Source: an uncultured bacterium
GTDB taxonomy: Bacteria; Armatimonadota; UBA5829
Direction of reading: 5' to 3'
DNA: 64,000 nt
Assembly (NCBI GenBank): GCA_963823885.1
Contig: CAWGNL010000060.1
Span: 576-64,575, forward strand
Within the stretch, counting starts at the first letter, position 1. Each line of letters opens with the position of its first letter. The notes under the pieces are model-generated. The model saw only the letters and a list, made by a program, of their open reading frames with translations. It was not told where the DNA came from and did no database searches. Shown here one piece after another: positions 1 through 40,190 of this stretch. The position numbers were made by a program, and so were the translations under genes.

Positions 1-2485
1 GTGGGTTTCTTTCCAATCTAACGGCGACAGCGTCGCCGTCACTTGCTCCTCCTAAGAAACTCCCCAGTTTCGGGAACAAGATTCCCGAAACACCGGGGGT
101 GGGTTTCTTTCCAATGTAATGGCGACAGCGTCGCCGTCACTTGCTCCTAAGAAACTCCCCAGTTTCGGGAACAAGATTCCCGAAACACCGGGGGTGGGTT
201 TCTTTCCAATGTAACGGCGGCAACGCCGAGGTCACTTGCTCCTCCTAAGAAACTCCCCAGTTTCGGGAACAAGATTCCCGAAACACCGGGGGTGGGTTTC
301 TTTCCAATGTAATGGCGACAGCGTCGCCGTCACTTGCTCCTCCTAAGAAACTCCCCAGTTTCGGGAACAAGATTCCCGAAACACCGGGGGTGGGTTTCTT
401 TCCAATGTAATGGCGACAGCGTCGCCGTCACTTGCTCCTCCTAAGAAACTCCCCAGTTTCGGGAACAAGATTCCCGAAACACCGGGGGTGGGTTTCTTTC
501 CAATGTAATGGCGACAGCGTCGCCGTCACTTGCTCCTCCTAAGAAACTCCCCAGTTTCGGGAACAAGATTCCCGAAACACCGGGGGTGGGTTTCTTTCCA
601 ATGTAACGGCGGCAACGCCGAGGTCACTTGCTCCTCCTAAGAAACTCCCCAGTTTCGGGAACAAGATTCCCGAAACACCGGGGGTGGGTTTCTTTCCAAT
701 CTAACGGCGACAGCGTCGCCGTCACTTGCTCCTAAGAAACTCCCCAGTTTCGGGAACAAGATTCCCGAAACACCGGGGGTGGGTTTCTTTCCAATGTAAT
801 GGCGACAGCGTCGCCGTCACTTGCTCCTCCTAAGAAACTCCCCAGTTTCGGGAACAAGATTCCCGAAACACCGGGGGTGGGTTTCTTTCCAATGTAACGG
901 CGACAGCGTCGCCGTCACTTGCTCTTCCTAAGAAACTCCCCAGTTTCGGGAACAGGATTCCCGAAACACCGGGGGTGGGTTTCTTTCTAATGTAACCGCG
1001 GCAACGCCGAGGTCACTTGCTCCTAAGAAACTCCCCAGTTTCGGGAACAAGATTCCCGAAACACCGGGGGTGGGTTTCTTTCCAATCTAACGGCGACAAC
1101 GCCGAGGTCACTTGCTCCTCCTAAGAAGCTCCCCAGTTTCGGGAACAAGATTCCCGAAACACCGGGGGTGGGTTTCTTTCCAATGTAATGGCGACAGCGT
1201 CGCCGTCACTTGCTCCTCCTAAGAAACTCCCCAGTTTCGGGAACAAGATTCCCGAAACACCGGGGGTGGGTTTCTTTCCAATCTAACGGCGACAACGCCG
1301 AGGTCACTTGCTCCTCCTAAGAAGCTCCCCAGTTTCGGGAACAAGATTCCCGAAACACCGGGGGTGGGTTTCTTTCCAATGTAATGGCGACAACGCCGAG
1401 GTCACTTGCTCCTAAGAAGCTCCCCAGTTTCGGGAACAGGATTCCCGAAACACCGGGGGTGGGTTTCTTTCCAATGTAATGGCGACAGCGTCGCCGTCAC
1501 TTGCTCCTCCTAAGAAACTCCCCAGTTTCGGGAACAAGATTCCCGAAACACCGGGGGTGGGTTTCTTTCCAATGTAACGGCGGCAACGCCGAGGTCACTT
1601 GCTCCTAAGAAACTCCCCAGTTTCGGGAACAAGATTCCCGAAACACCGGGGGTGGGTTTCTTTCCAATCTAACGGCGACAGCGTCGCCGTCACTTGCTCC
1701 TCCTAAGAAACTCCCCAGTTTCGGGAACAAGATTCCCGAAACACCGGGGGTGGGTTTCTTTCCAATGTAATGGCGACAGCGTCGCCGTCACTTGCTCCTA
1801 AGAAACTCCCCAGTTTCGGGAACAAGATTCCCGAAACACCGGGGGTGGGTTTCTTTCCAATGTAACGGCGGCAACGCCGAGGTCACTTGCTCCTCCTAAG
1901 AAACTCCCCAGTTTCGGGAACAAGATTCCCGAAACACCGGGGGTGGGTTTCTTTCCAATGTAATGGCGACAGCGTCGCCGTCACTTGCTCCTCCTAAGAA
2001 ACTCCCCAGTTTCGGGAACAAGATTCCCGAAACACCGGGGGTGGGTTTCTTTCCAATGTAATGGCGACAGCGTCGCCGTCACTTGCTCCTCCTAAGAAAC
2101 TCCCCAGTTTCGGGAACAAGATTCCCGAAACACCGGGGGTGGGTTTCTTTCCAATGTAATGGCGACAGCGTCGCCGTCACTTGCTCCTCCTAAGAAACTC
2201 CCCAGTTTCGGGAACAAGATTCCCGAAACACCGGGGGTGGGTTTCTTTCCAATGTAACGGCGGCAACGCCGAGGTCACTTGCTCCTCCTAAGAAACTCCC
2301 CAGTTTCGGGAACAAGATTCCCGAAACACCGGGGGTGGGTTTCTTTCCAATCTAACGGCGACAGCGTCGCCGTCACTTGCTCCTAAGAAACTCCCCAGTT
2401 TCGGGAACAAGATTCCCGAAACACCGGGGGTGGGTTTCTTTCCAATGTAATGGCGACAGCGTCGCCGTCACTTGCTCGGAATGAC
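1..2485. repeat. Tandem array of 26 units (95 or 98 bp). Each unit is an extended REP-A hairpin plus a short GC hairpin. The array runs off the window start.
   Basis: Unit starts were read at 1, 99, 194, 292, 390 ... 1652 ... 2335, 2430. The core is GTTTCGGGAAcaagaTTCCCGAAAC (10-bp arms, 5-nt loop), nested in aagaaactcccc / ggggtgggtttctt. The second hairpin is, for example, GGCGACagcGTCGCC. There is no ORF of 60 aa or more in 1-2372. The array ends in cacttgctcggaatgacat. Confidence 0.95.
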
Positions 2486-3791: not shown

Positions 3792-4145
3792 GTTTCGGGA
3801 TTTCCGGAGCGACTACGGCGTTTGTGCCATACTCGAACGGCCGTGCCCGCTCCTCAAATCCCGAAACACCGGCAAAAGAAACTCCCCAGTTTCGGGAACA
3901 AGATTCCCGAAACACCGGGGGGTGGGTTTCTTTCCAATGTAACGGCGACAGCGTCGCCGTCACTTGCTCAGGATGACATAATAGTTGCGCTAGTGCCTGT
4001 TGCGTTAACCCAACTTCCGCGCTACTCCGAACAGAGTTTCTTAGGAGCGTGTAGCGAGGAATCTCAACGCTGCGCCTGGATTCTTGTTCCGGTGCGTGAG
4101 GCTCATCCGAGCTTCGAGATCCCTCACATTCGTTCGGAATGACAG
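3792..4145. repeat. Repeat cluster: REPIN-B (3792-3870), one array-type unit (REP-A plus GC hairpin, 3875-3978), and an inverted gtcattccgaacgaa-type arm (about 4030-4145)
   Basis: Sequence identity to the other family members listed here. It fills the whole mtlD-DeoR intergenic space. Confidence 0.85.
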
Positions 4146-4269
4146 CCATGCGCTGGATACTACATGATTCCTCGTGAGCACTTACGAAACGTGGCTTGGC
4201 AGCCGTATCGGGAAAGGGGTTTCCCGATATGACGGGCAGGCGGTTTTCCCAACCTTTAACCTCAAACAT

Positions 4270-5116
4270 TTAACCCGCTATAAGTATCTCTACGCCCTGT
4301 GCTTCGATGTTCGCCCGATCATTCTGGGAAATGCCCGGGTCGGTCACCAGGATATGCACCTCTTCCCAGGCGCCGTAACGCGCGAAGGCCTTCTTACCGA
4401 ACTTCCGGCTCTCGGTCACCAGGACCACCTTATCAGCGATTTTCATGATATCCCTCTGGAAGTTCACGACGTGCATATCGAAGCAATAAATCCCTCCGAC
4501 GCTGTCCGCGCCGTCACAGCCGATGAACAGGGTGTCGACGTGCAGATTATGCAGGGTATCTTCGGTCAGCGGTCCGGTACAGGCTGGGGAAATCGCGTCT
4601 GAGAAACCCTCCCAGTAGAAGCACGGTCACCGGAGAGCCATAGAGCGCCTGCGCGGCGCACAGCGAAGTCGTCGCCACCGTGATATCGGCATTCTGAGGC
4701 AGATGGACCGCAACTTCCAGAGGTGTGGCGCCCGCGTCTATCATCACGGTCTGACCGGGACTGACGAGCCCGGCCGCCAGGCTGCCGATAGCCTCTTTCT
4801 CGGCGGAAATCCTGTAATGCGGAAATGCGCTGTGAAGAAAGCGAAGGCGACCGACCGCCACGGCCCCTCCGTGAGTGCGCGTGACAAGCCCCTGCTTCTC
4901 AAGGTCGGCCAAATCCCGGCGGATGGTCATGTCGGAGACTTCGAAACGGCTTGCCAGATGGCGCACGCCAATATCCTGGCCCTCCACCAGCAACTCAACG
5001 ACTACTCTCTGCCGCTCGTTCAACAGCTTCTCCTGTGTTCGGTTCGCACAACCACTATAACGCACGCGGACCAGCCTGTCAAGCTCGTGCAGCCGGTCTG
5101 AGCACGAATCATGCAT
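4270..5116 (-). CDS. DeoR-family transcriptional regulator (frameshifted)
   Basis: DeoR HTH (VRHLASRFEVSDMTIRRDLADLEKQGLVTRTHGGAV) followed by a sugar-binding-type C-domain. The last 68 aa (4270..4476) are in another frame, so there is a frame change near 4480-4600. The true start is probably downstream of 5116. Confidence 0.75.
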
Positions 5117-5359
5117 AAAGCAGCCCGGGGGCCTTGACCCTGGCCGGTGAATATGATATCATACGAACAGGTCAGCCGCCGAAGCGCACACACTCGCACG
5201 TTTTCAAATCAGGGGCTGGGGACTGGGGGCTAGGGAACCAGACGCCGGACCATCGTGCGCGGCGGTAGTTCCGGGCTTTCAGCTTTCCGCTATTTTTCGA
5301 ATGAATCAGGCATGAAGCCTCTGGCTTCACCACTATAGATAAAAAATAACCTCCGGAGA

Positions 5360-5437
5360 GTTTCGGGATTTCCGGAGCGAATACCACGTTTGTGCCCTAC
5401 ATAAACAATGGTTCGCTGCCTCAAATCCCGAAACACC
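5360..5437 (+). repeat. REPIN-B (GTTTCGGGATTTCCGGAGCGA ... GCTGCCTCAAATCCCGAAACACC) in the 5' leader of the E1 gene
   Basis: Long imperfect hairpin with the same arms as the copies flanking the RAYT. Confidence 0.9.
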
Positions 5438-5496
5438 GGGGGTGGCTGCCGTCCCTAACCGTTAAACCGACAACTATTTTCAGAGGAGTAACCAAA

Positions 5497-7737
5497 ATGC
5501 CAACCGCCGAAAAAACGATTTCCGCCCACAAAGACAAACTCAGCAAGGCGCAACTGGCGGATTTTCTACGCCAGATGTGCGAGATTCGATGCTTTGAAGA
5601 GAAAGTCGCCGAACTCCTCAAAGCGGGAATCATAAAGGGAGCCTCTCACCTTTATGCAGGCGAGGAGGCTGTTGCGGTAGGCGCCATTTCATCCATCACC
5701 GAAAGCGACGTCATCGCCAGCACCCACCGCGGACACGGTCACTGCGGGGCCATCGGCGACAAGCACGCTCATTCTCGCGAGGAAAAGCAAGGCCACTGGA
5801 ACAAGATGATGGCGGAGCTGATGGGCAAATCCACCGGCTACTGCAGGGGCCGCGGCGGTTCAATGCACATAGCCGACGTGCAAAAGGGCAACCTCGGCTC
5901 GACCGGTATTGTCGGCGGCAACATTCCAATAGGCACCGGAGCCGCGCTGGCCGAAAAGCTCAAAGGCGCCGGGAATGTGGTCCTGTGCTTCTTCGGAGAC
6001 GGCGCAAGCAACACCGGTTCGTTCCACGAGTCGCTCAACATGGGCGCGACGCTCTTGTGCGGGCTGCCGATAGTCTATATCTGCGAGAACAATCTCTACG
6101 GTATGTCGGTGCCGTTTTGCAGGAAATCCGTCGACGATGCGAGCCAGGCCTCGTGCGGGGAGAATGTAGCGGATCGGGCGAGCGGCTATTGCATGCCCGG
6201 CGAGGTGGTCGATGGGATGGATGTCTTCGCCGTCAGGAATGCGGTGGCCAAGGCAGTCGAGCGGGCCAGAAACGGTCTTGGCCCCACGCTGATCGAGGCA
6301 AAGACTTATCGCTGGTTCGGCCATTCCATAAGCGACCAAAAGATTTATCGCACGAAGGAAGAGGAAGCAGCCTGGAAAGAGCGCTGCCCGATAACCGTGC
6401 TTCGCGGCAAGCTCCTCAAAGAAGGCGTTATGAAGGTCGAGGAGATGGACAAGATTCAAGAGGCGGCCGCCCGGACAATCGAGACAGCCACCAAGTTCGC
6501 GATGGACAGCCCCTACCCCGACGCGAGCGAACTCTTCGACGATGTTTACGTTCCCGTCGACCAAGAGGCACTCAAGACCGAAAAAGCCGTCGAGAGCCGC
6601 CTCAGGGCGGTGATCCGGCCCATGGAGGACGAAATCCGGGGCTTTGTGCGCGAGCAGTCCGGCGGAGCGGCGAAAGGCGCCCTTCCTAAGCTCAATAAAG
6701 CGGCGCAAGACCAGTTCGCGGGCAAGCACGGAACGAGAATCCTCACATACGGGCAGGCAATTGTCCAGGCCCAGCGCGAGGAGATGCTCAGGGACGAGCG
6801 GGTAGTGATCCTCGGCGAGGATGTCGGGCTGTATGGCGGAGCTGTACGCGGCGACGAAGGGTCTTCTCCAGGAGTTCGGCCCGAACCGCGTTATCGACAC
6901 CGCCATTTCCGAAGCCGCCATCGCCGGGGCCGCCGCCGGGGCCGCAATGAGGGGTCTGCGCCCGATTCCCGAAGATCATGTACACAGATTTTGCCACCAT
7001 AGCATCGGACCAGATCGTGCACAACATGGCCTACAATCGCTACATGTTCCGGCGGCAAGACACGGGTCCCGTGCGTTCTCCGCACCGAAGGCGGAGTCGG
7101 ACGAAGCATCGCCGCGCACCACTCCGAGAGCCTCGAGTCGTGGTTTGTCCACATTCCCGGACTTTACGTGGTAATGCCATCCACTCCTTACGATGCCAAG
7201 GGCCTGCTTAAAGCCGCGATCAGGAACGATAACCCGGTCATCTTCGTCGAGCATAAGGTCCTTTACAGCGGCGTGATGGGGCCGGTGCCGGAAGAGGACT
7301 ATGTAATTCCGCTGGGCGTGGCGGATGTGAAGAAGACCGGGACGGACGTGACCATCGTCGCCTACTCCCGGCTGCTGCATCTGGCAATGGACGCGGCGCT
7401 GGAACTCGAGAAGCAGGGCATCAGCGCGGAGGTCATCGATCCGCGGACTCTCGCCCCCCTGGACGCGAGAACCATCGCCGAGTCGGTGCGCAAGACCGGC
7501 AGGCTGGTCAGCATTTCGGAAGGCTTCACGCGCTGCGGCATGGCAGGCGAGATTGTCCGCCAGACGACCGAGTAGACATTCGAAGACGGGCGATTGTGCT
7601 TCGATTACCTCGATGCTCCGCCGGTGGTTCTCGCGGCAAAGGACGTTCCGATCCCGATGAGCGAGCCGCTGGAAGACGCCTGCGTCCCCAGCAGAGACGA
7701 GATCGTGGACCGGGTCAAGTCGCTCTTTGCGGGATAG
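5497..7737 (+). CDS. Fused E1 alpha/beta subunit of a pyruvate/acetoin-type 2-oxoacid dehydrogenase (multiple frame disruptions)
   Basis: ATG at 5497 with RBS agaggag. The alpha part has TPP-enzyme motifs ([15 protein letters not shown]). A linker follows, then the beta part ([37 protein letters not shown]). The frame changes near 6840, 6975 and 7060-7170, and there is an in-frame TAG at 7573-7575. The same frame then continues to TAG at 7735-7737. Confidence 0.85.
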
Positions 7738-7773
7738 AGCCAAGGGGTCGAAGGTTCGGAAGGCTGAAAGTTC

Positions 7774-8522
7774 GGTGTTTCGGGATTTGAGAAGCGAGCA
7801 CAATCGTTCGAATAGGGTGCAGACATCTCAGTCGCTTCGGAAATCCCGAAACGAAACGGCTTTACGCTACAGGATCAAAGGCTCCAAGTCTAGTCCGACC
7901 GGTTCCCCGCGTTCATAAAACCGCCAACTCGAATGCTCCCAGTCTCCGGGAAGTTTCAACCAGTTTCCGCCTAACGGAATTGGCGTGGATGTAGTCGATC
8001 TTGGCATAAAGCTTCGGCTCGCTCCATACCGCGAGTGCGCGCACTTGCTCCTTCCACACGGCGTATTTGCAGCCACCGTTAGCGTGTGCGTCGAGGATTC
8101 CGAGCGTCTCAGTGTTGGCCTGTTTCTCCAGAAGCGCCGGGATGTGCCTGCCCGAGCGACCTCGCCACAGTTTGTTGAACTTGTGCGGCAGGCCGCTTTC
8201 GGGCAGATTTGCCAGCAGATGCAGGTGCTCGGGCATTATCACGAAGGCCGTGATCGACGCGCCGCAAACCCGCGCCGCTTCGGCGATATCGTCGTACACC
8301 ATCTGCCGGATATCCGGCCTGCTCAGCAGCGGCAGCCATTCGGTGATGGTCCCAGTGATGTAATAATACCCCGGCCCGATGTCGATGTTCTTCCATTTCA
8401 TCGTATGGCTCGGCCTCGTGTTCCCTGCGCGTTACGCGGCCTCGTTTCGGGATTTCCGGAGCGGACGGTAAATGCGCGTCCTCATCGTCACGCTGTGGCC
8501 GCTCCTCAAATCCCGAAACACC
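7774..8522 (-). mobile_element. RAYT locus: REP-associated tyrosine transposase gene bracketed by two inverted REPIN-B copies
   Basis: REPIN-B in reverse orientation at 7774-7862 and in forward orientation at 8444-8522, with the Y1 transposase ORF between them. This is the classical RAYT/REPIN arrangement. Confidence 0.85.
7913..8401 (-). CDS. REP-associated tyrosine transposase (RAYT; IS200-like Y1 HUH transposase)
   Basis: 162-aa ORF with HUH motif (MPEHLHLL) and C-terminal catalytic Tyr motif (IDYIHANSVRRKLV), as in the Y1_Tnp family. Confidence 0.85.
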   Translation of the reverse strand: MKWKNIDIGPGYYYITGTITEWLPLLSRPDIRQMVYDDIAEAARVCGASITAFVIMPEHLHLLANLPESGLPHKFNKLWRGRSGRHIPALLEKQANTETLGILDAHANGGCKYAVWKEQVRALAVWSEPKLYAKIDYIHANSVRRKLVETSRRLGAFELAVL

Positions 8523-8615
8523 GGACACAACGCTATCGGAAAAACCAGCCCGAGAAAAGCAAATGCTTGCAAATGCTGCTAACGCGATAAGTTGTCTAGT
8601 CTTGCACAATTCACA

Positions 8616-16185: not shown

Positions 16186-16266
16186 GTCTCGGGATTTCCG
16201 GAGCGAGCCAATGATGTTTCTGCCCTAGATTAACACCTGTGATCGCTCCTCAAATCCCGAAACACC
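16186..16266 (+). repeat. REPIN-B copy
   Basis: gtctcgggatttccggagcga ... tcgctcctcaaatcccgaaacacc. Confidence 0.9.
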
Positions 16267-16299
16267 GGGGGCAGGTTTTCCGCGGGGCGGAAGTCCGGA

Positions 16300-17822: not shown

Positions 17823-18294
17823 AGCCGCAACCAAGAAGGCCATCGCCGGAAAATCAATACGGCCTTTCCATAATTCGGAAGGTCGGTGGTTTCTTCTTAC
17901 GTATCTTACAACTGAAATCCGAGGTCACATATCAAAGTTCAGTACAGCTTGTATAGGATTTCAGTTGTAAGGTACTATCGCTTTTCCCCGGACTTCGCTG
18001 GGGAAAAGTGGCCACCTTACGGTGGCAGTTGACCAAGGCAGGCGGTCGGGTTTTTCGCTTTTCGGTTGTTAAGGGATGATTTGGAGGGGGCGGGATTCCA
18101 CCCCCGTCCCTTGAACAACACCTGAGTCGGCTCGGGAGGACTCCCCAGCGTTGCCCTACCCTCCGCCCAGGCAAAGCAAGTATAGCTCATCGGCCATCCC
18201 TTAACAACCATAAAGCGGAAAACCCAAAGGCGGTGCGCCGTCGAATCCGCCTTAGCGACAACAAATTGTTTCTAGGAGGGCGATAAGCGCCTAA
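17823..18294 (+). repeat. LR element copy 1 (about 470-bp structured non-coding repeat; left 15 nt missing)
   Basis: The L module has a 16-bp-arm hairpin CTTACAACTGAAATCC-N35-GGATTTCAGTTGTAAG. The R module has several hairpins and an approximately 29-bp long-range helix. By eye it is near-identical to the copies at 29463, 46587 and 47989. Confidence 0.9.
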
Positions 18295-18299
18295 CGCGG

Positions 18300-19278
18300 C
18301 TAAACCAACACCACGGGCTGGCCCGCACTGATGGACCTGAGCGCGGCTTCCGCTGATACGCACCGCCTCCAGAGCGTCTCTCGCCGTGATCTCGGCTTGC
18401 TTACCCTGTTCCAAACAGTCGATGAAATGTTCCAATTCCAGGTAATACGGGTCCTGGCCGCTGGGGGTCTCCGATATCACGAGGCCAGCGCGATCGGCAT
18501 CCATAGACTTCATCTCGATATTAAGCGGCGCACTCTCTTTGCTGGAATAGCTCAGCACCCCGTTGGTTCCGGCTATCTCCACGCACGTCTCGAAACCGCT
18601 GGGCCTTGCCCAGCTTCCCTCCACGTGAGCTATTGCCCCGCTTTGAAACCTGAGCGTGACCAGCGCGTAATCCGCTGACGGAACCCCCGATTCGACCGCC
18701 CGCGCAAAGACTCTGGTCACTCTTCCCAGGCTCCATCGCAGCCAGTCGAAGTCGTGGACCAACAAGTCCAGCACGACGCCGCCGCTGCGCTTGAAGTCCG
18801 CAAACCACCCCGCCGGCTGGCCCGAGCGGCGGCTGGTGCGCGCGACCATGGTTCTCCCACCGCTCCGCTGGCCACAAGGTCATGAAGCCTTCTGAACTCG
18901 GGACACCACCTCAAGACGTGCGCCACAAAAAGCTGTACCCCGGCCTCCTCGCACACACGCACGGCCTCCTGAGCTTGGCCAACCGTGCGAGCCATGGGCT
19001 TTTCCACGCACACGTGCTTGCCCGCGGCAGCGGCGGCATTTACGGAGTCGATATGGTTCGGGGTGGGCGTGCAGATATCGAGCATATCGACCTCGGAGTA
19101 TTTCAAGAGACTCCGCCAGGCTCGAAAACGGCTGAGCCCCGTACCGGGCGGCAAGCTCCTCAGTAGTCTCCATTATCGAATCACACACCGCAACAAGCTC
19201 GGCTTTCGGCATCCGAGCATAGGCCTCGCAATGGACTTTCCCAATCCCGCCAAGGCCAACGACAGCAACTTTCTGCAT
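18300..19278 (-). CDS. Gfo/Idh/MocA family oxidoreductase, second paralog (3 or more frameshifts)
   Basis: MQKVAVVGLGGIGKVH, HVCVEKPMA, and the C-domain ...DYALVTLRFQSGAIAHVEGSW. The pieces are 18880..19284, 18717..19154 and 18187..18849. The true tail ...AEAALRSISAGQPVVLV ends at TAG 18300-18302 after a shift near 18355. Confidence 0.75.
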
Positions 19279-19303
19279 CAGCACCCCCAGGTTAGAAATT
19301 AGA

Positions 19304-20412
19304 AATTAGAATCCGGACCCCTAACCCGCACAGGCCCCTGTTCGGGCGGATTTGCAATCCGGCCCGTAATGAGCAACCCGGGCATCTCTGATGCCCTACG
19401 GTTCGGCCCGGCAAATACGCACCGCTTCCCGCCACATACCCACAAGTCATGTCATTCCGAACGAACGTGAGGAATCTCCACCTATCGGTTGAATCTCACC
19501 TGCCGGAGCATACATTCCTGCGCAACGTTGAGATTCCTCACATTCGTTCCTAAGAAACTCCCCAGTTTCGGGAACAAGATTCCCGAAACACCGGGGGTGA
19601 AGAAACTCCCCAATTAGAATCCGGACCCCTAACCCGCACAGGCCCCTGTTCCGGCGGATTTGCAATCCGGCCCGTAATGAGCAACCCGGGCATCTCTGAT
19701 GCCCTACGGTTCGGCCCGGCAAATACGTACCGCTTCCCGCCACATACCCCACAAGTCATGTCATTCCGAACGAACGTGAGGAATCTCCACCTATCGGTTG
19801 AATCTCACCTGCCGGAGCATACATTCCTGCGCAACGTTGAGATTCCTCACATTCGTTCCTAAGAAACTCCCCAGTTTCGGGAACAAGATTCCCGAAACAC
19901 CGGGGGTGAAGAAACTCCCCAATTAGAATCCGGACCCCTAACCCGCACAGGCCCCTGTTCGGGCGGATTTGCAATCCGGCCCGTAATGAGCAGCCCGGGC
20001 ATCTCTGATGCCCTACGGTTCGGCCCGGCAAATACGCACCGCTTCCCGCCACATACCCCACAAGTCATGTCATTCCGAACGAACGTGAGGAATCTCCACC
20101 TATCGGTTGAATCTCGCCTGCCGGAGCATACATTCCTGCGCAACGTTGAGATTCCTCACATTCGTTCCTAAGAAACTCCCCAGTTTCGGGAACAAGATTC
20201 CCGAAACACCGGGGGTGAGTTTCTTTCCAATGTGACTGCGACAGTGTCGCTGTCAATTGCTCGGAATGACAGCCACGCGTTGGGCACTCATGATGCCTGA
20301 GCACTTGCCCAGCATAACGTTGAGATTCCTCACATTCGTTCCTAAGAAACTCCCCAGTTTCGGGAACAAGATTCCCGAAACACCGGGGGTGAGTTTCTTT
20401 CCAATGTCAACC
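19304..20412. repeat. Composite tandem repeat: three units of about 309 bp (19304, 19612, 19921) plus related degenerate copies up to about 20412
   Basis: Each unit holds small hairpins (cggatttgcaatccg, gggcatctctgatgccc), a long hairpin gaacgaacgtgaggaatctc-N52-gagattcctcacattcgttc, and a REP-A hairpin. The identical 101-aa pseudo-ORFs at 19447 and 19756 confirm the 309-bp period. Confidence 0.95.
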
Positions 20413-20419
20413 GTGAACC

Positions 20420-21773
20420 CTACACAAATATCAGCACCGGCGACTCCAGGATCGCCTTCAACCCCGCGAGGAATTCGGCGGCCGGCGCGCCGTCCATTAC
20501 TCTGTGATCGAACGATAGGCACAGGTTCATCATGGACCGAATCCTGACCTCGCCATCGATTGCCACCGGAGCATCGGCGATCTCGCACACACCCAGGATC
20601 GCGCTCTGGCCCGGAACGATGATCGGATTAAAGCTGACCACCCCGTACACGCCGAGGTTTGTAATGGTGAACGTGCCATCCTTGAAGTCCGAGGCCGCCG
20701 CCGTCCCCCCGCGCGCGCTGGCGACGAGGTCCTTGATTTCTCTGGATATCCGCGCCAGGCTCTTCGTTTGCGCATCCCTAATCACGGGCGCCACAAGCCC
20801 TTCATCGATCGCTGTGGCGATCCCAAGATTAACGGTCTCGTGAATAACTATCCGATCGCCGTCCAGCGAGGAGTTGACTATCGGCTTGTCCTGAATTGCC
20901 GTCGCGACTGCCTTCGCGATAATATCGGTAAATGAAATCCGTACCCCATAGCGGCTCTCGACCGGTTGCAGGATGCGTTTTCGTAGAGCAGCGCACTCTG
21001 TCATGTCGACCTGGGCGACCAGGGTGACGTGCGCCGCGGTCCGCGCACTGGATGCCACATTCCGCGCCACGGCCTTGCGCACGCCGGGAAATGGAATAGT
21101 GGTTCCGATCGCCGTCGCGCCCGGGCTGCGGGGCTTGCGCGGCTCGCATGATATCGGTGCTGGTGATCTTGCCGGCGACGCCGCTGCCGCTTACGGCGCC
21201 CGTCTCCACCCCCATTTCCGCCGCCATCCTTCCGGCGAGCGGAGTCATCCTGGGAGCCGAGGCCGGATGATCCAGCACATCTCGCTCCAGGATGCGGCCA
21301 CTGGGCCCCGTGCCCTTGCCCGCAAGCTCGGAAATGTCGATGCCGCGCTCCCTGGCAACGCGCCTGGCGGCCGGCGAAGCAAAGATTCTCTCTGCAACCG
21401 GCGGCGCGGTCCCCATGTCGCCTGCATGCGTCGGGACAGCCGGACCAATCGGCGCGCTCGGTTCAGCCGCCTTCTCCGGGGCAGGGGCGGGGACGGGCGC
21501 GGCTGCCTTACCCAGCGCGTCTTCCGCGGACTCGCCGGCGGCTCCTATTAAAGCTATGGGCTCCTTGACCGGCACCGTCTGCTCCGGCCCAGCGTAAATC
21601 TTCAGCAAGACGCCGTCGCTGGGCGCCTCCACTTCCATGTTGACCTTGTCCGTCATCACCTCGAGCAAGGGTTCCCCTGCTTTGATCGGGTCACCCTCGT
21701 TCTTGAACCACCTGATTATCGTTCCCTCTTCCATGGTCTGCCCCAGCAGGGGCATCGCCATCTTCGTCGCCAT
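20420..21773 (-). CDS. Dihydrolipoamide acyltransferase (E2) of a 2-oxoacid dehydrogenase complex (frameshift near 21090)
   Basis: Lipoyl domain (EVMTDKVNMEVEAP), E3/E1-binding domain (ASPAARRVARERGIDISELAGKGTGPSGRI), and catalytic domain with DHRVMDG. Confidence 0.85.
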
Positions 21774-22213: not shown

Positions 22214-24158
22214 ATGGATCGAACAATGACACTCAACCTTGCAAAAAAGATTATCCGCGAGCACCTCGTGGAAGGTGAAATGATTCCCGGTCGGGAGATT
22301 GCGATACGCATCGACCAGACCCTCACCCAGGATGCCACGGGAACAATGGCCTACCTGCAGTTCGAGGCGCTGGGAGTGCCGTCGGTGAAGACAAAACTCT
22401 CCGTGAGTTACGTAGACCATAACACCCTCCAGTCCGGCTTCGAGAACGCGGACGATCACGCGTACCTGCAGAGCGCCGCCGCCAAATATGGCGTCTACTT
22501 CTCCCTGCCGGGAAACGGCATCTGTCACCAGGTCCAACTGGAGCGCTTCGATGTGCCCGGCGACACCCTCCTTGGATCCGACAGCCATACTCCTACCGCT
22601 GGAGGCTTGGGGATGCTCGCAATAGGAGCGGGCGGATTGGACGTGGCCTCGGCGATGGCCGGACAGCCCTTCTACCTGCCGATGCCCAAAGTCTGCCTTG
22701 TCAGGCTGACCGGCAGCTTAAGGCCCTGGGTATCCGCTAAGGATGTGATCCTCGAAGTCCTGCGCATTCTGGGGGTAAAGGGTGGGGTCGGCAAGATTAT
22801 CGAGTACGGCGGGGAGGGAATCCGGAGCCTCTCGGCCACGGATCGCGCCACCATAACGAACATGGGGCCGAGCCGGCGCCACGACATCCATCTTCCCAAG
22901 CGACGATATCACGCGAGCGTTCCTCGCTTCTCAAAACCGGGAGGGCGATTGGAAGCAGGTATTGCCCGATCCGCAATGCGATTATGATGAAGTTATCGAG
23001 GTAAACTTAGACACACTTGAACCTCTAATCGCTATGCCCCACTCGCCGGACAATGTGGTAAAGGTCAGCGAAATCGAGGGGACGAAAGTCGATCAGGTGG
23101 CAATCGGCAGTTGCACCAACTCGTCCCTGCGGGACCTGATGGTCGTAGCCGGCGCTCTCAAAGGCAGGACCGTGCACCCATCGGTGAGCCTCGTGATATC
23201 GCCTGGGTCCAGGCAGGTGTTCGAGATGATCGCCAGGAACGGCGCGCTTGCGGAGTTGATATCGGCAGGGGCCAGATTGCTCGAATCCGCCTGCGGGCCG
23301 TGCATCGGAATGGGACAATCTCCCAAGACCAATGCGGTCTCCATACGCACGTTTCAACCGCAATTTCGAGGGTCGAAGCGGCACCGCGAGCGCTCAGGTT
23401 TACCTTGCCGGGCCGGAAGTCGCGGTGGCAGCCGCCATATACGGCGCGATTACCGATCCGCGCAAGCTGGGCGAGCCGCCTGTATTTCGAATCGCCGCAA
23501 AGCTACCTCGCCGATGACCGAATGGTGATACGGCCTTCGGATGAGCCGCGGTCGGTGGAAATAGTCCGCGGACCCAACATCAAGCCGCTGCCCACGAATA
23601 CCCCTCTGCCCGATACGATCTCAGGGCGGGTTCTGCTGAAGGTCCGCGACAACATTACAACGGACCACATAATGCCGGCGGGCGCCAAGGTGCTGCCGCT
23701 GAGGTCGAACATTCCGGCGATATCGGAGTTCGTCTTCACGGCGGTCGATCCTGAGTTCCCCAGGCGCGCCAGGAAATACCCGGGCGGAGTCATCCTGGCA
23801 GGCGAAAACTACGGCCAGGGTTCCTCGCGCGAGCATGCGGCGCTTGCTCCGATGTATCTGGGGATCAAGGCGGTAATCGCGAAGTCCTTCGCTCGGATTC
23901 ATCGCCAGAACCTGATCAACTTCGGCATCGTGCCCCTCAAGCTTGTCGATCCATCCGACTACGACAGGATCAGCCAGTCTCGACGACGTCGAAATACTGG
24001 ACATTGCGAGCGACCTCATAGACGGCTCGTCGATACTCGTCCTGTTGGACCACAATATCACGATGGGCTTTGAAGTCAGCCACGATCTCTCCCAGCGCGA
24101 GCGCGAAGTCATTCTGGCCGGCGGAGCTTTGAATTACATAAAGAGCAAGGCAAGCTAA
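22214..24158 (+). CDS. Aconitase-family hydratase, single-chain catalytic plus swivel domains (3 or more frameshifts)
   Basis: [29 protein letters not shown] and CGPCIGMGQ (Fe-S ligand motifs), plus swivel [17 protein letters not shown]. The pieces are 22214..22987, 22962..23528, 23111..24073 and 23943..24158. Confidence 0.8.
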
Positions 24159-25492
24159 TGATTACGTCGGAAGCCGGATCGGTAGGAATCGTCCAAACAG
24201 CAAGTTTCACTTTCGCCGAGCCACCCAACGAGCTATTGCTCGACTGCGGGCGCAAACTGGGTCCCATAACCCTCGCGTACGAAACTTACGGCCGGATGAA
24301 CGCCGATAAGAGCAACTGCATTCTTGTGCTGCACGCGCTTACCGGCGATGCCCACGCGGCGGGCCGCAACCACCCCGAGGATCGCAAGCCCGGCTGGTGG
24401 GACAATATGATCGGGCCCGGCAAGGCTTTCGACACGAACAAGTACTTCATCATCTGCTCGAATATAATCTCCGGCTGCAAGGGAAGCACCGGGCCGGGAT
24501 CGGTTAACCCCGCCACGGGCGGGTTCCACGGCATAGACTTTCCAATAGTGACGATATCCGATATGGTCCGCGCTCAGAAGTTCCTGCTCGATCACCTGGG
24601 TATCAGCCAACTGATGTGCGTCGTCGGCGGCAGCATGGGAGGCATGCAGGCGCTGGAATGGACCGTGGCCTACCCCGACATGGTGCGGATGGCGATGCTC
24701 ATCGCAACCACAGCCAGGCTTTCCGCTCAGGCAATCGCCTTCGACGCCGTCGGCAGGCAGGCCATAATGTCCGATCCCAACTGGATGAACGGGGACTATT
24801 ATGGCAAGGAGCTTGCCGAGCGCCGGGCTGGCGATCGCGCGAATGATAGGGCATATCACTTACCTGTCGGATAAATCCATGCACAAAAAGTTCGGCCGCG
24901 ACCTGCAGAATACAAGACGACTCCCGACTATGATTTCGTCACCGAGTTCCAGGTGGAAAGTTATCTGAACTATCAGGGCGAGGCGTTCGTCGAAAGGTTT
25001 GACGCGAACTCCTATCTATACATCACCAAAGCCATGGACTACTACGACGCCGCGCAGCCCAGCGGCGATCTTCGCAAGGAGCTCGCGAAAGCGAAGGCCG
25101 CGTTCCTGGTAATCTCGTTCTCGTCGGACTGGCTGTTTCCATCCTATATGTCCAAAGAGATCGTTTCGGCGCTGAGGCGCAATAACATGGATGTCAGCTA
25201 CGCGGAGATACAATCCGACTACGGCCACGATGCATTCCTGCTGGAAGTCGACACTCTGAGCCGCCTGGTGGTCAACTTCCTGGATAGTACGCGGATCCCA
25301 AAAACGAGCAAGAGGAGTGAGTTCAGTAACCCGGGAACGACATCTCCGTCAGTGCTGAAGAGGCCCGGTTTGTGGGCCGTATCTGAAGCACGGCCGCATT
25401 GCGCGACCGCCCTTCGATACATACTGCTTACGCTCGCCACTCAGGGCTGGCGGGTTCTAAGTTCTGCAAAACTGAACCCTTTGAGCAAGAGC
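24158..25492 (+). CDS. metX: Homoserine O-acetyltransferase (frameshifted; 3' end uncertain)
   Basis: [12 protein letters not shown], nucleophile elbow [12 protein letters not shown], and C-terminal [11 protein letters not shown]. The frame changes between 24830 and 24950. The reading frame runs on into metW, so the real stop is probably lost to an indel. Confidence 0.8.
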
Positions 25493-26175: not shown

Positions 26176-26352
26176 TAGCCCGCATTATTCACGAATTGAT
26201 AGGCCAGTCTTTTGGCTTGGGTACCCACGCGCTCCCTCTCCTGGATGGAGAGGGCTGGGGTGAGGGGGAAACGCCGTAATTGGGCACAAGCTCATCGACC
26301 GCGGCGTTCCACCCTCACCCCCAACCCCTCTCCCGTGAGGGCGAGGGGAGTT
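26176..26352 (+). repeat. Family-G palindromic element (truncated copy)
   Basis: gcccgcattattcacgaatt ... ccctctcctggatggagagggctggggtgaggggg ... ccaccctcacccccaacccctctcccgtgagggcgagggg. It is the reverse complement of 39889-40105. Confidence 0.85.
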
Positions 26353-29079: not shown

Positions 29080-29294
29080 CTTTGGATATCTCCTTTCACG
29101 GTCGAAAGTCATACGTCGCTACAGATGCGATTCCTCTGAAGATAGTTGTCGGTCGTCAGTCCGGACACCTCGCGCTCGGCGCGTCGCAGCCGGACCCATG
29201 TCAATTGTCAATTATCAATTTCTTGATGGTCGGGCGTTTCCGAACGCCCGACCCAGTTCCCCGGGTTTGCAACCCGCGAGCACGCGTTCCCATT

Positions 29295-29361
29295 GCCGGT
29301 GTATCGGGAATCTTGTTCCCGATACGCACTTAGTTTCGGGAACAAGATTCCCGAAACACCC
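29295..29361 (+). repeat. REPIN-A' (inverted pair GTATCGGGAATCTTGTTCCCGATAC + GTTTCGGGAACAAGATTCCCGAAAC)
   Basis: Direct reading. The same 67-bp unit occurs at 31176-31242, 51299-51366 and other sites. Confidence 0.9.
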
Positions 29362-29462
29362 GTTAACTAAGCACTAGTTGTCAACAATGCGGGACGGTCG
29401 TCATCCGGGTGACCGATCCCCTCCCAATCCGCTGACCCTACAAACCCTACAAACCCTATCAA

Positions 29463-29938
29463 CCCTAAGGCGGCATAGCCGCAACCAAGAAGACCATCGC
29501 CGGAAAATCAATACGGCCTTTCCGTAATTCGGAAGGTCGGTGGTAGTATCTTACAACTGAAATCCGGGGTGACGTATCGGAGTTCGGTACAGCTTCTATC
29601 GGATTTCAGTTGTGAGATACTACGCTTTTCCCCAGACTTCGCTGGGGAAAAGTGGCCACCTTACGGTGGCAGTTGACCAAGGCAGGCGGTCGGGTTTTTC
29701 GCTTTTCGGTTGTTAAGGGATGATTTGGAGGGGGCGGAGATTTCCACCCCCATCCCTTGAACAACACCTGAGTCGGCTCGGGAGAGCTCCCCAGCGTTGC
29801 CCTACCCTCCGCCCAGGCAAAGCAAGTATAGCTCATCCGCCATCCCTTAACAACCATAAAGCGGAAAACCCAAAGGCGGTGCGCCGTCGAATCCGCCTTA
29901 GCGACAACAAATTGTTTCTAGGGAGGCGCTAAGCGCCT
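29463..29938 (+). repeat. LR element copy 3 (full length)
   Basis: L plus R modules. The right end ...ggaggcgctaagcgcCTA overlaps the TAG stop (29937-29939) of padR. Confidence 0.9.
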
Positions 29939-30335
29939 ATTCAACGATTACCGTTCGCGTTACTTCCAACAACTCCCCTATGGCATCGCGATAGGTGGAT
30001 AGCGTTTCCATCCAGCGAACAAGGCACGCACGCCCCGCCATAGTGAGGCTGTATAATCGTTTGGCGGGACCCGTTTCGGACGTATCCCACGTTGATGTAA
30101 CGAGCGCGCGGTCTTCCATCTGGCGCAAGAAGCGATACACCCCTGTCGCGTCCGGCTTTCGTCCACGAAAAATCGGCATCTCCGCCAAACGCTGCACGAG
30201 CGCATAACCATGAGCATCCTCACGTGCCAGCACTGCCAAGATGGCGGGCTGCACCAGTTTATCCAGGTTGCGTCCGGCACAGGGACAGTCACGGTATTTC
30301 TGGTCGGGTAACGGGGCGCCAGGCTGTGTTGTCAT
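29937..30335 (-). CDS. PadR-family transcriptional regulator
   Basis: 132 aa with a winged-helix PadR pattern (AILAVLAREDAHGYALVQRL ... GPAKRLYSLT). Confidence 0.85.
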   Translation of the reverse strand: MTTQPGAPLPDQKYRDCPCAGRNLDKLVQPAILAVLAREDAHGYALVQRLAEMPIFRGRKPDATGVYRFLRQMEDRALVTSTWDTSETGPAKRLYSLTMAGRACLVRWMETLSTYRDAIGELLEVTRTVIVE

Positions 30336-31125: not shown

Positions 31126-31521
31126 TATCTTACAACTGAAATCCGAGGTGACGTATCAAAATTCAGGTACAGCTTGCCGGTGTATCGGGAATCTTGTTCC
31201 CGATACGCACTTAGTTTCGGGAACAAGATTCCCGAAACACCCGTTAACTAAGCACTAGTTGTCAACAATGCGGGACGGTCGTCATCCGGGTGACCGATCC
31301 CCTCCCAATCCGCTGACCCTACAAACCCTACAAACCCTACAAACCCTATCAACCCTAAGGCGGCATAGCCGCAACCAAGAAGACCATCGCCGGAAAATCA
31401 ATACGGCCTTTCCGCGATTCGGAAGGTCGGTGGTTTCTTCTTACGTATCTTACAACTGAAATCCGAGGTGACATGTCAAAGTTCAGTACAGCTTGTATAG
31501 GATTTCAGTTGTAAGATACTA
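31126..31521 (+). repeat. Nested repeat: half of an L hairpin (31126-31175), then REPIN-A' (31176-31242), a 110-bp spacer with ccctacaaa x3, and a complete L module (31353-31521)
   Basis: The left arm plus loop 5' part (tatcttacaactgaaatccgaggtgac.t.tcaaa.ttcag.tacagctt) occurs twice, at 31126 and 31446. The segment 31176-31500 parallels 29295-29600. Confidence 0.85.
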
Positions 31522-31527
31522 TCGACC

Positions 31528-33510
31528 CTATCTCAAAGCCTCGCCTTTTTCGTGTCGTGCTTGGTCTCGGGCGGGGGCTGGTAGAGGGTTTCGCCTGGCC
31601 GTACCCTTGGTCTTGACCTTCGAGGTCTCCGGAGGCGATGCGTTGAGGGCCATTCCGAGACCGAACGCGAGGTACCCCGCGCAGCTCGCATAAGCCGGAC
31701 CGTCGACCACGATTCCCGTTTCCGCGTCCACGCTCTCGCAGGCAATTCCGTTGTCCATCGGCGCTCGCCTGAGGAATTCCATCGCCTCATCGATCCGGCC
31801 GCACATCAGGTCGTTTATCACGCTCACGACCGATGGCCCGGCGCCCTCGCGGACCGATGCCTGCGCAAACGGATGATTGCCTTCGTACAACGGGTTGTGC
31901 TCCGAGTGAATCCATTTCACCGTATTGACATACGCAGGGTCGTCACCCGTGCAAAAGCCGAGAAATGTGAGCAGACTCGAGGCTGCCCGCGGGGTCGTCT
32001 CCCAACTCGAAGTTGCCATTCAGATCGATCTCCCGAGCGAACATCTTGCCGAAAGGCCCCGGCACGATGAAGTTGCCCAGAATCGCCGACCGCACCTGGC
32101 TTGCCAGCGTAGATGCCTCGTCGGACCGATCCACATCGCGAATCCTCTCGTACAGCGATTTGATGTCGAGAAGTGCCCGCCAGACCAGCACATTGGAGAA
32201 GCATACGTATGGCAGCGCCGAAAGCTCGTCCAACGGCCGCAGCAACGTCTCGAACAGCGCCAATTCCGGGTGCCTCTGGGTGGCGAGTATTTGCTGAACC
32301 GTGTTCACACCCGTCTGCACCCGGCGGTCGAAAAGGATCGAATCATCACCGGTAAGCTGGACATAAGTGTTGATTGCGCGTATCGGGGCGCTTATCTGGT
32401 CCAGGGCAATACCCGGCTCCAGGACAACGCCGTCGATAAATCGCGCGGCCACGCCGACATTGAGCAACTGTTCGGTAAAGGCGTACATAAGGAGTTTGCG
32501 CGCTTGTTCCCAGCTTATCTGGAGCACAGCGGGAAGAGTCCACCGCATCGCATCGCGGTCCCGATACGCGGCGCACAACCGGTTCCGCGAGCTTCGCGCG
32601 CATGTGACTACGAGCTCTTCCGTATCCAGGGTGATGGCCTGAGAAAAGAAGTAGTTGTAGAATGAGTTCGTATTCATCAACTGCTTGGCGAAGGAATCGT
32701 CGCAATCGATGGTGTGCTTGTCCAGCCACACTTCGAGGTGATCGAGCAGGCGCTCCCACCCGTGAAGACTCAGTTCGTTCGCGGAAGCTTCGGCGGAAAC
32801 CTCCTCCAGGCCGATGCCGAAGTACACCGGCAGTGCCTTCTTCTCCCCCGGCGATAAGACGTAATCATCCGCCAGTTCGTAGCAAACCGGCGAATCAGCC
32901 GGCGCAAGTATGCCCTCTTGCGACCGCCCGGTGATCTCTTTGCCGCTGTCGGCATCCCAAACCCTCGTGGGCACTCGGGCTTGGGTCGCCATAGCAGTGG
33001 CGAAAACAGGAACGATGTTTCCCCGAAGCTCCATTATGGGCGAAGCGTCCCGCCTGGACCCGATGTTGGCGTACTTCACACCCGACATCGATCTGGACAG
33101 GCACGCCGTGTGCGTGCTTGACTCCCAGCAGCCCTTCCACCCGGCCCTGGTCTTGATCTCCGCCCCGGATATGTTTTCGATCTCCAGCACGCAGACGAAA
33201 CCCCGGCGATCCAGCGGGGCAAATATCGTGACCCTCGCGCTCACTTTGGAAGAGCGCGCCCAGATACGCGGTATCCAGTAGCGGTCCAGCTCGCCCGCCG
33301 CTCCCCCGCCCCAAAGATGTCCTCACCCTCCGCCAGGACAACAGGCCGCAGGAGCGGCAGACGATCTGAACCGTTGATCTCGATGCAGGCCCGGTAAGCC
33401 TTGTGCATGAACCCTATTGTCCTTATTCCGGCGGACGGAATCGAGATATCGGGTATGGATACAAACTCGTTACCGGTGCTTAGCCGCGTTATGTTAGATC
33501 GCTCGATCAT
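31528..33510 (-). CDS. Glycoside-hydrolase-like (alpha/alpha)6-barrel protein, distantly GH125/DUF1237-like (2 or more frameshifts)
   Basis: Pieces are 33241..33510 (MIERSN...), 31943..33244 and 31528..32019. The segment [45 protein letters not shown] resembles the EVDGxGN...DDANxPSLL...LGY...NTR...NPYY pattern of GH125. This family call is tentative. Confidence 0.45.
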
Positions 33511-34815: not shown

Positions 34816-34877
34816 GTTTCGGGATTTTCGCCTAGCCTGGCTCGTCGAAGCTGATCAGCCCGAAATCCCGAAACATC
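34816..34877 (+). repeat. REPIN-B variant
   Basis: gtttcgggattttcgcc ... gcccgaaatcccgaaacatc. Confidence 0.75.
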
Positions 34878-35009
34878 GGGGAAAGCGGAAAGCCCGGAAC
34901 TTCCGTCCCGCGCATTCGCAACGCCCCCAGGCGGCGACTTTGAGAATAGCCACCTCCGGACCCCCGCTGGATTTACGGATCCGGCGGAACCCCCTATCGA
35001 GGCTCTACC

Positions 35010-36300: not shown

Positions 36301-36545
36301 AGTGGATTCGACGACTGCGTCGAGCATGCGAGTTTGCTCTGAGGCAACGAGACCCCCGCCGCGCCTTGTTGCCCGATGCCCGGAAGGCGCGGCTCGCGGG
36401 TTCCCTTCCGGCCTTGGAGGGGACCTTCTGCTCCCCACCTCTTCCTAATCTGGACCAAGCGCGCCAGGCCGCAGAGCAGACCGACAACGGAAGCCGGCTC
36501 GGGCGGATGCAGACCATGCCTTCTCTGCCTGGCAGAAGGTGCCAG

Positions 36546-36612
36546 GCGTGCAGCGGGAACTCGAAGGGCTTCATTCCGAGAATTGTCTCTACTTGTCGTT
36601 CCCACCGCATAG
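36546..36612 (-). repeat. Family-F repeat (reverse complement of 55811-55877)
   Basis: gcgtgcagcgggaactcgaaggg...gtctctacttgtcgttcccaccgcatag compared with ctatgcggcgggaacgacaagtcgagac...cttcgagttcccgctgcacgc. Confidence 0.75.
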
Positions 36613-36759
36613 GTGGCTCCCGTTCTCGTGAAGGCTGAGCTCTTACGGCGCTGATTGGCGCGGCGCATTGACGCCACACGGGTTCGGTGGTACACTGATG
36701 ACGGACCATGTTGGAGTAGCGCGGGTCGCAATGCCCATCGAGAGATGGCTGCCGGACGA

Positions 36760-40105: not shown

Positions 40106-40190
40106 TAGGGCTTTCTTGACCCCGGGGGGGCCGCGTGTTATGATTTCTTAGCCGTGCCCACGGCAGCCGGACCGAGCGAGACCTAAGGAC

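Follow-up and report, generated by a model that had tools for sequence, protein, structure and literature searches.

LR, a modular family of non-coding, hairpin-rich repeats inserted beside CCTAA in the genome of an uncultured bacterium

What kind of element is a non-coding, hairpin-rich sequence of about 470 bp that recurs again and again within a single piece of genome: a mobile element, a structured RNA, or both? This question is raised by a stretch of 64,000 nucleotides from an uncultured bacterium (GenBank assembly GCA_963823885.1, contig CAWGNL010000060.1, positions 576 to 64,575, forward strand; hereafter the window), in which a first-pass annotation, made from the letters alone, had described such a repeat, the LR element, built of two modules, L and R, and had left all three answers standing. 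We find that LR is genuine: a family, uncatalogued until now, of hairpin-rich insertions that do not code for protein, are site-specific and resemble palindrome-associated transposable elements (PATEs) and REPINs, which are doublets of repetitive extragenic palindromes (REPs). The mobile part of the earlier proposal is supported; for the RNA part the sole hint is a distant homologue of one helix of R.

Copies of LR and the site of their insertion

BLAST with the first copy and nhmmer recovered, at the same seven places that had been reported before, four full copies (L followed by R, about 450-490 bp) and three copies of L alone. Each has flanks of its own, all lie on the + strand of the window, and identity between copies is 89.6-96.8%; the L-only copies align over the first 155-158 nt of the first copy. 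The copies, with the parts and neighbours needed below, are the following (a slash inside a sequence marks a junction or insertion point; ORF, open reading frame).

17823-18294, + strand: full copy; lacks 9-10 nt at the left, and with them half of the left hairpin and the CCTAA flank; ends ...GATAAGCGCCTAA
22039-22213, + strand: L-only copy; CCTAA, L, then ...GATGCTACGCCTAA; touches the ATG of the aconitase ORF at 22214
29289-29463: upstream of copy 29464, a REP doublet and a 110-nt module ending CCCTAA
29464-29940, + strand: full copy; its terminal CTA (29937-29939) is the TAG stop of a minus-strand PadR gene
29469-29620, + strand: L module of copy 29464, with the left GC hairpin, a hairpin of CCTTTCC with GGAAGG, and a hairpin with 16-20-bp arms
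29621-29940, + strand: R module of copy 29464; strands of the long helix at about 29692-29720 and about 29843-29871; terminal hairpin GGCGCtaaGCGCC, then TA(T)
31126-31176, + strand: orphan fragment of an L hairpin (left arm and loop, 51 nt), joined to a REP doublet
31354-31531, + strand: L-only copy; upstream modules as at 29464; ends ...ACTATCGACCCTAT; CTA at 31528-31530 is the stop of the minus-strand ORF 31528-32019
39721-39889, + strand: L-only copy; ends ...GATACTAA; on the minus strand the end reads GCCGCTTTAG/GGAGGACAAACATG, just upstream of the Shine-Dalgarno sequence and ATG of ORF 39396-39710
46587-47037, + strand: full copy with a 35-nt deletion; its left flank is half of a palindromic 'T' repeat; CTA at 47034-47036 is the stop of a FecR-like gene
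47989-48474, + strand: full copy; CTA at 48471-48473 is the TAG stop of the minus-strand cytidine deaminase gene 48471-48953

The earlier description needs adjusting in three respects. Near-identity holds for R (95-98%) and fails for L, which is 88-95% identical and shows 5-12% mismatches between full copies. Copy 17823 does contain both modules, as claimed, but lacks its first 9-10 nt; and all three L-only copies are there, but two of them (22039 and 31354) also keep a few bases from the R side, ending CCTAA or CCCTAT. The orphan fragment at 31126-31176 marks a rearranged, partly duplicated unit upstream of copy 31354.

An exact scan of a genome collection for a 21-mer of L located further full, L-only and truncated copies, with other flanks, at no fewer than two loci (L001 and L002) of contig CAVYDK010000022.1, which belongs to one metagenome-assembled genome (MAG), 'uncultured Acidobacteriaceae bacterium MFD01112.bin.2.20'. 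The window and these loci give us a view of about 80 kb of genome in total. Exact-pattern scans gave no match to the L pattern in JGI metagenomes and none to the R helix or its foot in viral contigs; BLAST in distant mode found no match of LR to plasmids or phages, and a regular-expression search of all loci gathered found no LR-like termini outside the carrier genome.

Could the copies be repeats that do not move by themselves and were multiplied by recombination, gene conversion or segmental duplication, or created in long-read assembly? The genome is rich in tandem arrays and rearranged repeat mosaics, and many of its genes look frameshifted, as in an error-prone assembly or a decaying genome. 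We nevertheless regard this as extremely improbable. The boundaries of the copies are sharp and identical, at CCTAA, their flanks are unique, they stand 3-11% apart with substitutions private to each, and the precise filled and empty sites described below point to insertion. The first-pass annotation would have abandoned LR had the copies proved to be assembly duplicates or been confined to the window; neither is the case, as their differences and the copies in an independent public MAG contig show.

Insertion can be seen at the palindromic 'T' repeat. Intact, this repeat reads ...GGGTCCCTTCCCTAA/TTCAAAATTC..., more fully ...GCTGGGTCCCTTCCCTAA/TTCAAAATTCAAAATT... (also ...GCTGGGTCCCTTCCCTAATTCAAAATTCAAAATT...), and it is uninterrupted at L001(-) near 3011 and L002(-) near 4113. 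At L002(-) 954..286 it is filled: ...GCTGGGTCCCTTCCCTAA/AGCGGCATAGCCGC...(L, REP doublet, partial L, R)...GCGCCTAA/TTCAAAATTCAGG. The insertion point lies directly behind CCCTAA, to the base, and the composite itself ends ...GCGCCTAA, with a CCTAA of its own; this comparison of filled with empty is one among paralogous repeats within one genome. Members of the 'T' family (GAATTTTGAATTGAAGGGAC...GTCCCTTCCCTAATTCAAAATTC) lie at L001(-) about 3011, L002(-) about 4113 and about 954, and 46530-46586 of the window, and carry the LR-type insertion site as a CCCTAA bulge.

The flanks of the other copies tell the same story. On the left stands (C)CCTAA, once CCCCAA; full copies end on the right in GCGCCTAA or the one-base variants CCTAT and GCTAA, and the sequence beyond is unrelated between copies. 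LR copies are thus insertions that landed immediately beside CCTAA (TTAGG on the other strand), and since LR carries a second CCTAA at its far end, the site is regenerated. In the window as a whole CCTAA occurs 62 times on the + strand against 11 occurrences of TTAGG, mostly because every repeat family carries CCTAA.

A miniature inverted-repeat transposable element (MITE), moved by a DDE transposase of, for example, IS5 or IS630 type and duplicating CTAA- or CTAG-like targets, would leave CTAA or CCTAA on both sides of a copy and a single one at the empty site, as found here; IS5-group elements indeed prefer YTAR targets and make short duplications. The ends of LR, however, do not have the form of a MITE. 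Alignments of the copies contain no terminal inverted repeats of 10 bp or longer: the left end, (A or G)GCGGCnnnGCCGCAACC, and the reverse complement of the right end agree over at most about 7 nt, in a stretch that includes the target, and the right end of the L-only copies is quite unlike, indeed unrelated to, that of full copies. The lack of a real inverted repeat and the differing right end argue against a DDE-type MITE. In addition, the left and right CTAA are unlike within two copies (CCCCAA versus GCTAA, CCTAA versus CCTAT), the seven copies of the window all point the same way, the pile-ups are head to tail, and no DDE transposase is encoded in the window. We therefore consider a MITE very improbable.

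The first-pass annotation had likened the ends of LR to those of IS200/IS605 elements, and this likeness extends to behaviour: besides lacking terminal inverted repeats, LR has hairpins at both ends, CCTAA as flank and as end, one orientation (7/7 copies in the window), pile-ups, and an empty and a filled site, and REP-associated tyrosine transposase (RAYT) genes are present in the carrier genome. The left-end hairpin GCGGCnnnGCCGC lies 1 nt and the right-end hairpin GGCGCtaaGCGCC 3 nt from the element's boundary; their stems are invariant and their loops variable. IS200/IS605 elements are described as passing through single-stranded intermediates and as having subterminal hairpins, a fixed flank motif and an element-end motif, and gene-less derivatives, the PATEs, are on record (PMC10055086; PMC6006769). 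LR is, in our judgement, probably a non-autonomous element of modular build whose movement, as single-stranded DNA, depends on an HUH tyrosine transposase. This enzyme, a TnpA of IS200/IS605 type or a RAYT-like protein, would act in trans; the terminal hairpins would be its recognition sites and the cut would fall beside CTAA, as in PATEs and REPINs, and later elements would land at the regenerated site, building head-to-tail pile-ups in one orientation. Such pile-ups were seen at 46.5 kb (the left half of 'T', then LR) and at 29.3 and 31.2 kb (REP doublet, 110-nt module, L), and copies are found nested, truncated or joined with REP doublets and other modules, each ending C(T)AA.

The RAYT genes of the carrier genome lie in the MAG contig.

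L001:3424-3957, 4093-4626 and 5032-5565, minus strand: three tandem RAYT ORFs of 177 aa, matching NF047646 at 85-91 bits (best 90.8; cut-off 80)

The HVH and YIHANP motifs are visible in these ORFs, and the one checked against Pfam gave a weak match to Y1_Tnp. RAYTs are described as usually single-copy (PMC5581495). Each of the three genes is flanked by a REP hairpin, GTTTCGGGAA(N4-5)TTCCCGAAAC, on the foot GTTTCGGGA...TCCCGAAAC, and downstream of the genes there are partial duplicates of the gene 3' end together with the REP. Doublets of this hairpin look like REPINs (PMC3337134; PMC3116915). From its sequence, the REP/RAYT system of this genome looks active.

Several observations weigh against transposition of LR by an enzyme of this kind. 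The RAYT genes are flanked by a hairpin (GTTTCGGGAA..TTCCCGAAAC) other than those of LR, from which it is absent. No transposase or recombinase domain of any kind was found among the ORFs of the 64-kb window, and no tyrosine transposase flanked by LR end hairpins in the window or the MAG loci. Between the end hairpins and the presumed cleavage sites there are 0-1 nt on the left and 3-4 nt on the right. In IS608 the spacing between hairpin and cleavage site is about 19 nt on the left and about 10 nt on the right; for IS608 and ISDra2 taken together it is about 10-20 nt, and a guide tetranucleotide precedes the hairpin on its 5' side. Throughout the window the + strand has a negative GC skew, and under IS608 rules the active strand would be the minus strand. 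The filled and empty sites with the CCTAA end fit a 4-5-bp duplication (CTAA or CCTAA) and insertion beside the target equally well, and no insertion polymorphic between strains was seen in the roughly 80 kb covered.

The first-pass annotation had treated LR as a single element, and here our data point elsewhere. L, of about 170 bp, occurs alone three times in the window and once in L002, and in the MAG contig it is cut to its first 107 nt ahead of a nuoC-like gene; R, of about 305 bp, was not seen by itself in the window or the MAG loci. Across five full copies R is variable in 23 of 321 columns and L in 27 of 158 (Fisher p = 0.0013), and R contains invariant stretches of about 90 nt. Seen from the minus strand, each module opens with NTAG and, directly after it, a hairpin, R as TTAG/GCGCTTAGCGCC and L as (G, A, T or C)TAG/TATCTTACAAC..., and the two L-only copies 22039 and 31354 keep about the last 6 bases of R on the R side of the junction (GCGTAG and CGATAG). 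These data suggest that L and R are separable modules in a genome-wide population of hairpin repeats. R may have spread after L, or independently of it, by way of the (N)TAG/CTA site with which L ends; or LR may move as a composite from which R can be lost, or R may be under stronger constraint than L.

Structure of LR and the case for an RNA

The hairpins named by the first-pass annotation, its long-range helix and the alternative partner of that helix are all present in our alignments and folds. They comprise GCGGCnnnGCCGC, CCTTTCC..GGAAGG, the hairpin with 16-20-bp arms, CTTTTCCCC..GGGGAAAAG, GCCACCttacGGTGGC, GGGGG paired with CCCCC, and the terminal GGCGCtaaGCGCC; the long-range helix in R is about 29 bp, and its nearer alternative partner is TCCCTTGAACAAC. 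The deletion of about 35 nt that had been noted is found in copy 46587-47037, where alignment shows the GGGGG hairpin to be lost. One full copy has a predicted folding energy of -215 kcal/mol when read as the + strand (z = -8.5) and of -219 kcal/mol when read as the minus strand (z = -8.1), with z-scores taken against dinucleotide shuffles.

That LR does not code for protein was upheld: its ORFs are at most 83 aa long and not alike from copy to copy, and a search of 5.8 billion proteins found homologues of them only in the window's own 77,223-bp contig. Nor, as had been supposed, does LR belong to a known RNA family represented in Rfam 15. At gathering thresholds the whole window yielded only two tRNAs, and at E<=10 one LR copy had no relevant match, the best sub-threshold one being ctRNA_pGA1 (23.9 bits, threshold 45). 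Inspection by eye led us to discard group II introns and ribozymes in the absence of any Rfam signal, Y RNA and 6S RNA for want of a match, LR moreover being multi-copy, CRISPR for the lack of unique spacers, and integron attC sites since the base after CTAA is not conserved.

Two signal-like sequences lie within LR. In L, on the + strand at 48039-48064 and at the same place in other copies, CGGCCTTTCC..GGAAGGTCG followed by GTGGTTTCTT resembles a terminator; its T-rich tail is deleted in copy 29464. On the minus strand at 29825-29853, TTGTTA-17-TATACT resembles a promoter (9/12 matches; the same sequence occurs in other copies). The 3' strand of the long R helix contains it, and its direction is towards L and the minus-strand gene that comes next; in the 900 bp that were scanned, chance alone should produce about 0.6 sites like it.

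A relative of the long R helix was found outside the carrier genome. In 120 loci of metagenome contigs, 527 kb in all, that have the REP hairpin in common with the carrier genome, nhmmer and a covariance model identified a sole LR-related sequence, L012:905-985 (Ga0116202_10050895), a stand-alone hairpin of 81 nt that reads GGTCGGGTTTTTCGCTTTTC-TGGTGTTATGAATG-(16-nt loop)-TATTCATAACACCC-ATAAAGCGGAAAACCCA. Its outer 20 nt (GGTCGGGTTTTTCGCTTTTC) and 17-18 nt (ATAAAGCGGAAAACCC with an optional A) match the foot of the long R helix letter for letter; its inner helix differs yet pairs, with 5 double compensatory changes in 14 pairs of a gap-free alignment. Under the covariance model it reached 98.9 bits, compared with 81 bits for the deletion copy of LR. 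We claim no wider homology with R, as a long gapped alignment beat shuffles only through the two helix strands. L012 itself had no relevant Rfam match at E<=10, and no further example was met in a pattern scan of viral contigs or in nhmmer, covariance-model and regular-expression searches of the loci, other model matches being different hairpin families. The L012 contig is Armatimonadota-like; the hairpin lies between convergent genes, 55 nt past the TAG stop of an NlpC/P60 gene, and three orthologous loci (L124-L126) have ordinary terminator hairpins at that position, in gaps of 63-80 bp versus 207 bp in L012. A conserved foot with a free interior looks like a hairpin recognised by a protein, which, on sequence grounds, could be a transposase on DNA or an RNA-binding protein.

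Does LR, or R by itself, encode a functional structured RNA, instead of or besides being mobile? Such an RNA could be a guide of omega-RNA type on a gene-less IS200/IS605 derivative, used in trans by a TnpB or IscB nuclease, or else a 3'-untranslated or intergenic module that binds a protein or stabilises or terminates an operon transcript. Both strands are very stable (z about -8), R is significantly more conserved than L and has its invariant stretches, and the foot of its helix recurs in L012 with compensatory changes, at a place where a terminator hairpin would be. Copies that directly follow the stops of minus-strand genes would be co-transcribed as the reverse complement, and PATEs often keep omega-RNAs (PMC10055086). 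Against this, no Rfam model, including HEARO, the omega RNA of IscB/IsrB, matched LR even at E<=10, and the window holds no tnpB or iscB gene or remnant and no OrfB_IS605 or related domain. Among the copies within the genome 0 of 141 predicted pairs show a double change, and one-sided changes in stems fit the + strand in about 4 cases and the minus strand in about 2, with no clear bias. Orientation relative to genes is inconsistent, LR being antisense in minus-strand operons and sense between nuoB and nuoC in L002, and no convincing promoter was found in the LR region scanned. The compensatory evidence comes from one outside sequence, and a conserved foot with a variable interior is also typical of palindromes recognised by transposases, such as REPs. 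We therefore consider a functional RNA unlikely, though it deserves to be kept in mind; as an addition to mobility we hold it to be, if anything, slightly less likely still.

A more specific version, which we judge quite unlikely, is that R is an undescribed structured RNA, or a nucleic-acid motif recognised by a protein, that occurs across Armatimonadota-like bacteria and rides a mobile L/R chassis inserted at TTAG/GGAGG. The signature of this putative motif may be the foot GGGUUUUUCGCUUUUC...AUAAAGCGGAAAACCC with an interior that varies freely and yet is always paired. It would be co-transcribed with operons that it leaves undisturbed, and might serve a transposon nuclease as an omega-RNA-type trans guide or scaffold, or else be a 3'-end module of a new kind. 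If the foot of the R helix is an RNA or protein-binding motif, it would constitute a new family.

Genes and repeats around LR

At four copies (29464, 31354, 46587 and 47989) the minus-strand gene on the right has its in-frame TAG stop in the terminal CTA, and copy 39721 adjoins an intact GGGAGGA-N5-ATG. The FecR-like protein ends in a C-terminal tail of 18 aa compared with 17 aa in a homologue, and its orthologue in L003, a syntenic locus from the closest relative available, also ends in TAG; the insertion therefore did not truncate the gene. Insertion at a ...T-TAG stop or a TTAG/GGAGG junction would leave both the stop codon and the ribosome-binding site intact: because LR carries the same pentanucleotide as its target, insertion at TTAG/G would keep a stop upstream and GGAGG downstream. 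Regeneration of the site may thus explain why copies sit inside operons.

In L003 the FecR-like, SIS, M20 and DUF3866 genes are 218, 4 and 28 bp apart and contain no LR. In the window an LR copy lies in the FecR-like/SIS gap, which measures about 0.9 kb, and the 4-bp SIS/M20 gap of L003 is replaced by a 1.2-kb tandem array with a 233-bp period. Intergenic gaps are much shorter in the orthologous loci L003 and L124-L126; the FecR-like orthologue of L003 and the NlpC/P60 orthologues of L124-L126 share 55-58% protein identity, too distant for empty sites to be compared at the nucleotide level.

G+C content of the window is 57%. Look-ups of the proteins encoded in it gave no existing record. The closest homologues of its proteins are at most 58% identical, and several are named Armatimonadetes or Armatimonadota, as are those of the L012 proteins; the lineage is therefore poorly sampled, and the Acidobacteriaceae label of the MAG may be imprecise. 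Several genes look split or truncated (18187-19284, 19447-21773, 22214-24073): a GFO/IDH/MocA gene occupies two ORFs, the N- and C-terminal parts of aconitase are in separate ORFs, and of an E2 acyltransferase only the lipoyl and E3-binding domains are encoded, with short ORFs and a 309-bp array behind them. These could be frameshift errors of long reads or real gene decay. The window also contains a tRNA pair, in the arrangement usual for the spacer of an rRNA operon, and no rRNA gene was detected anywhere in it.

Other repeats are abundant, and many long palindromes in the window stand on the foot GTTTCGGGA...TCCCGAAAC.

1-2477: 98-bp unit repeated 25.5 times, running off the start of the window; each unit has the REP hairpin GTTTCGGGAACAAGATTCCCGAAAC, a second hairpin ACGGCGACAGCGTCGCCGT and CCTAA
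19304-20218: tandem array of REP-like hairpins, period 309 bp
35413-35773: the same, period 144 bp
44054-45268: the same, period 233 bp (the array in the SIS/M20 gap)
51447-51835: the same, period 80/95 bp
54317-54490: the same, period 86 bp
5359-5475, 7770-7855, 8444-8524, 16186-16271, 34817-34896, 55965-56087 and 58344-58412: palindromes of 70-120 bp with foot GTTTCGGGATTTCCGGAGCG...CGCTCCTCAAATCCCGAAAC and variable interior; they look like REPINs, some followed by ...GGTCCCTAAC
26176-26350 with 39932-40107, 25323-25481 with 58097-58256, and 36534-36618 with 55803-55890: two-copy repeat families of 85-175 bp in inverted pairs, one member of which adjoins the L-only copy 39721
49515-49674, minus strand: tRNA-Ile(GAT) and tRNA-Ala(TGC)

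LR beside known systems

What is noteworthy in LR is its size and modularity, its insertion at junctions of stop codons and ribosome-binding sites, and the deeply conserved helix foot in R. If it is indeed moved as single-stranded DNA, then a poorly sampled uncultured lineage has had its intergenic space massively colonised by hairpin elements of this type, which would offer a natural example of elements that persist inside operons and a source of new pairs of HUH transposases and ends. For annotation, such repeats matter in that they inflate intergenic regions, give rise to spurious ORFs and could pass for regulatory RNAs.

Like the omega RNAs of TnpB and IscB, HEARO included, LR is long, structured and non-coding and would belong to an element of IS200/IS605 type, and omega RNAs are sometimes retained in gene-less derivatives (PMC10055086). 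It differs from them in having no match to HEARO or any other Rfam model and no nuclease gene nearby, and in being known from DNA sequence alone. Comparable in architecture are the bacterial interspersed mosaic elements (BIMEs) of E. coli and the BOX elements of Streptococcus pneumoniae, whose modules, as in LR, occur alone or combined, are intergenic and highly structured, and are likely to be co-transcribed. Their sequences are unrelated to LR, and LR has a defined insertion site with a filled and an empty example, which is not established for BOX.

REPs and REPINs resemble LR in setting. The carrier genome has REP-flanked RAYT genes, REP doublets and long REP arrays, with which LR is interleaved; LR is likewise intergenic, often just after stop codons, and the minus-strand NTAG plus hairpin with which L and R start recalls GTAG-tagged REPs (PMC3733652). 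Its hairpins, however, are unrelated in sequence to the REP beside the RAYT genes, and with 470 bp and about ten distinct helices it is unlike a palindrome of 20-40 nt or a doublet of one.

From the PATEs LR differs in that no cognate TnpA, TnpB or IscB element with the same ends was found, in its hairpins, which lie almost on the cleavage sites and not 10-20 nt away, and in its build: at 470 bp it is large for a PATE, its two modules differ in conservation, and the right end changes in L-only copies. In its other features LR resembles PATEs: it is non-coding, lacks terminal inverted repeats, has hairpins at both ends and a fixed flank motif with a similar motif at its own end, and is found in one orientation and in tandem or nested pile-ups. 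As in PATEs, an HUH tyrosine transposase supplied in trans would be the natural mechanism of its movement.

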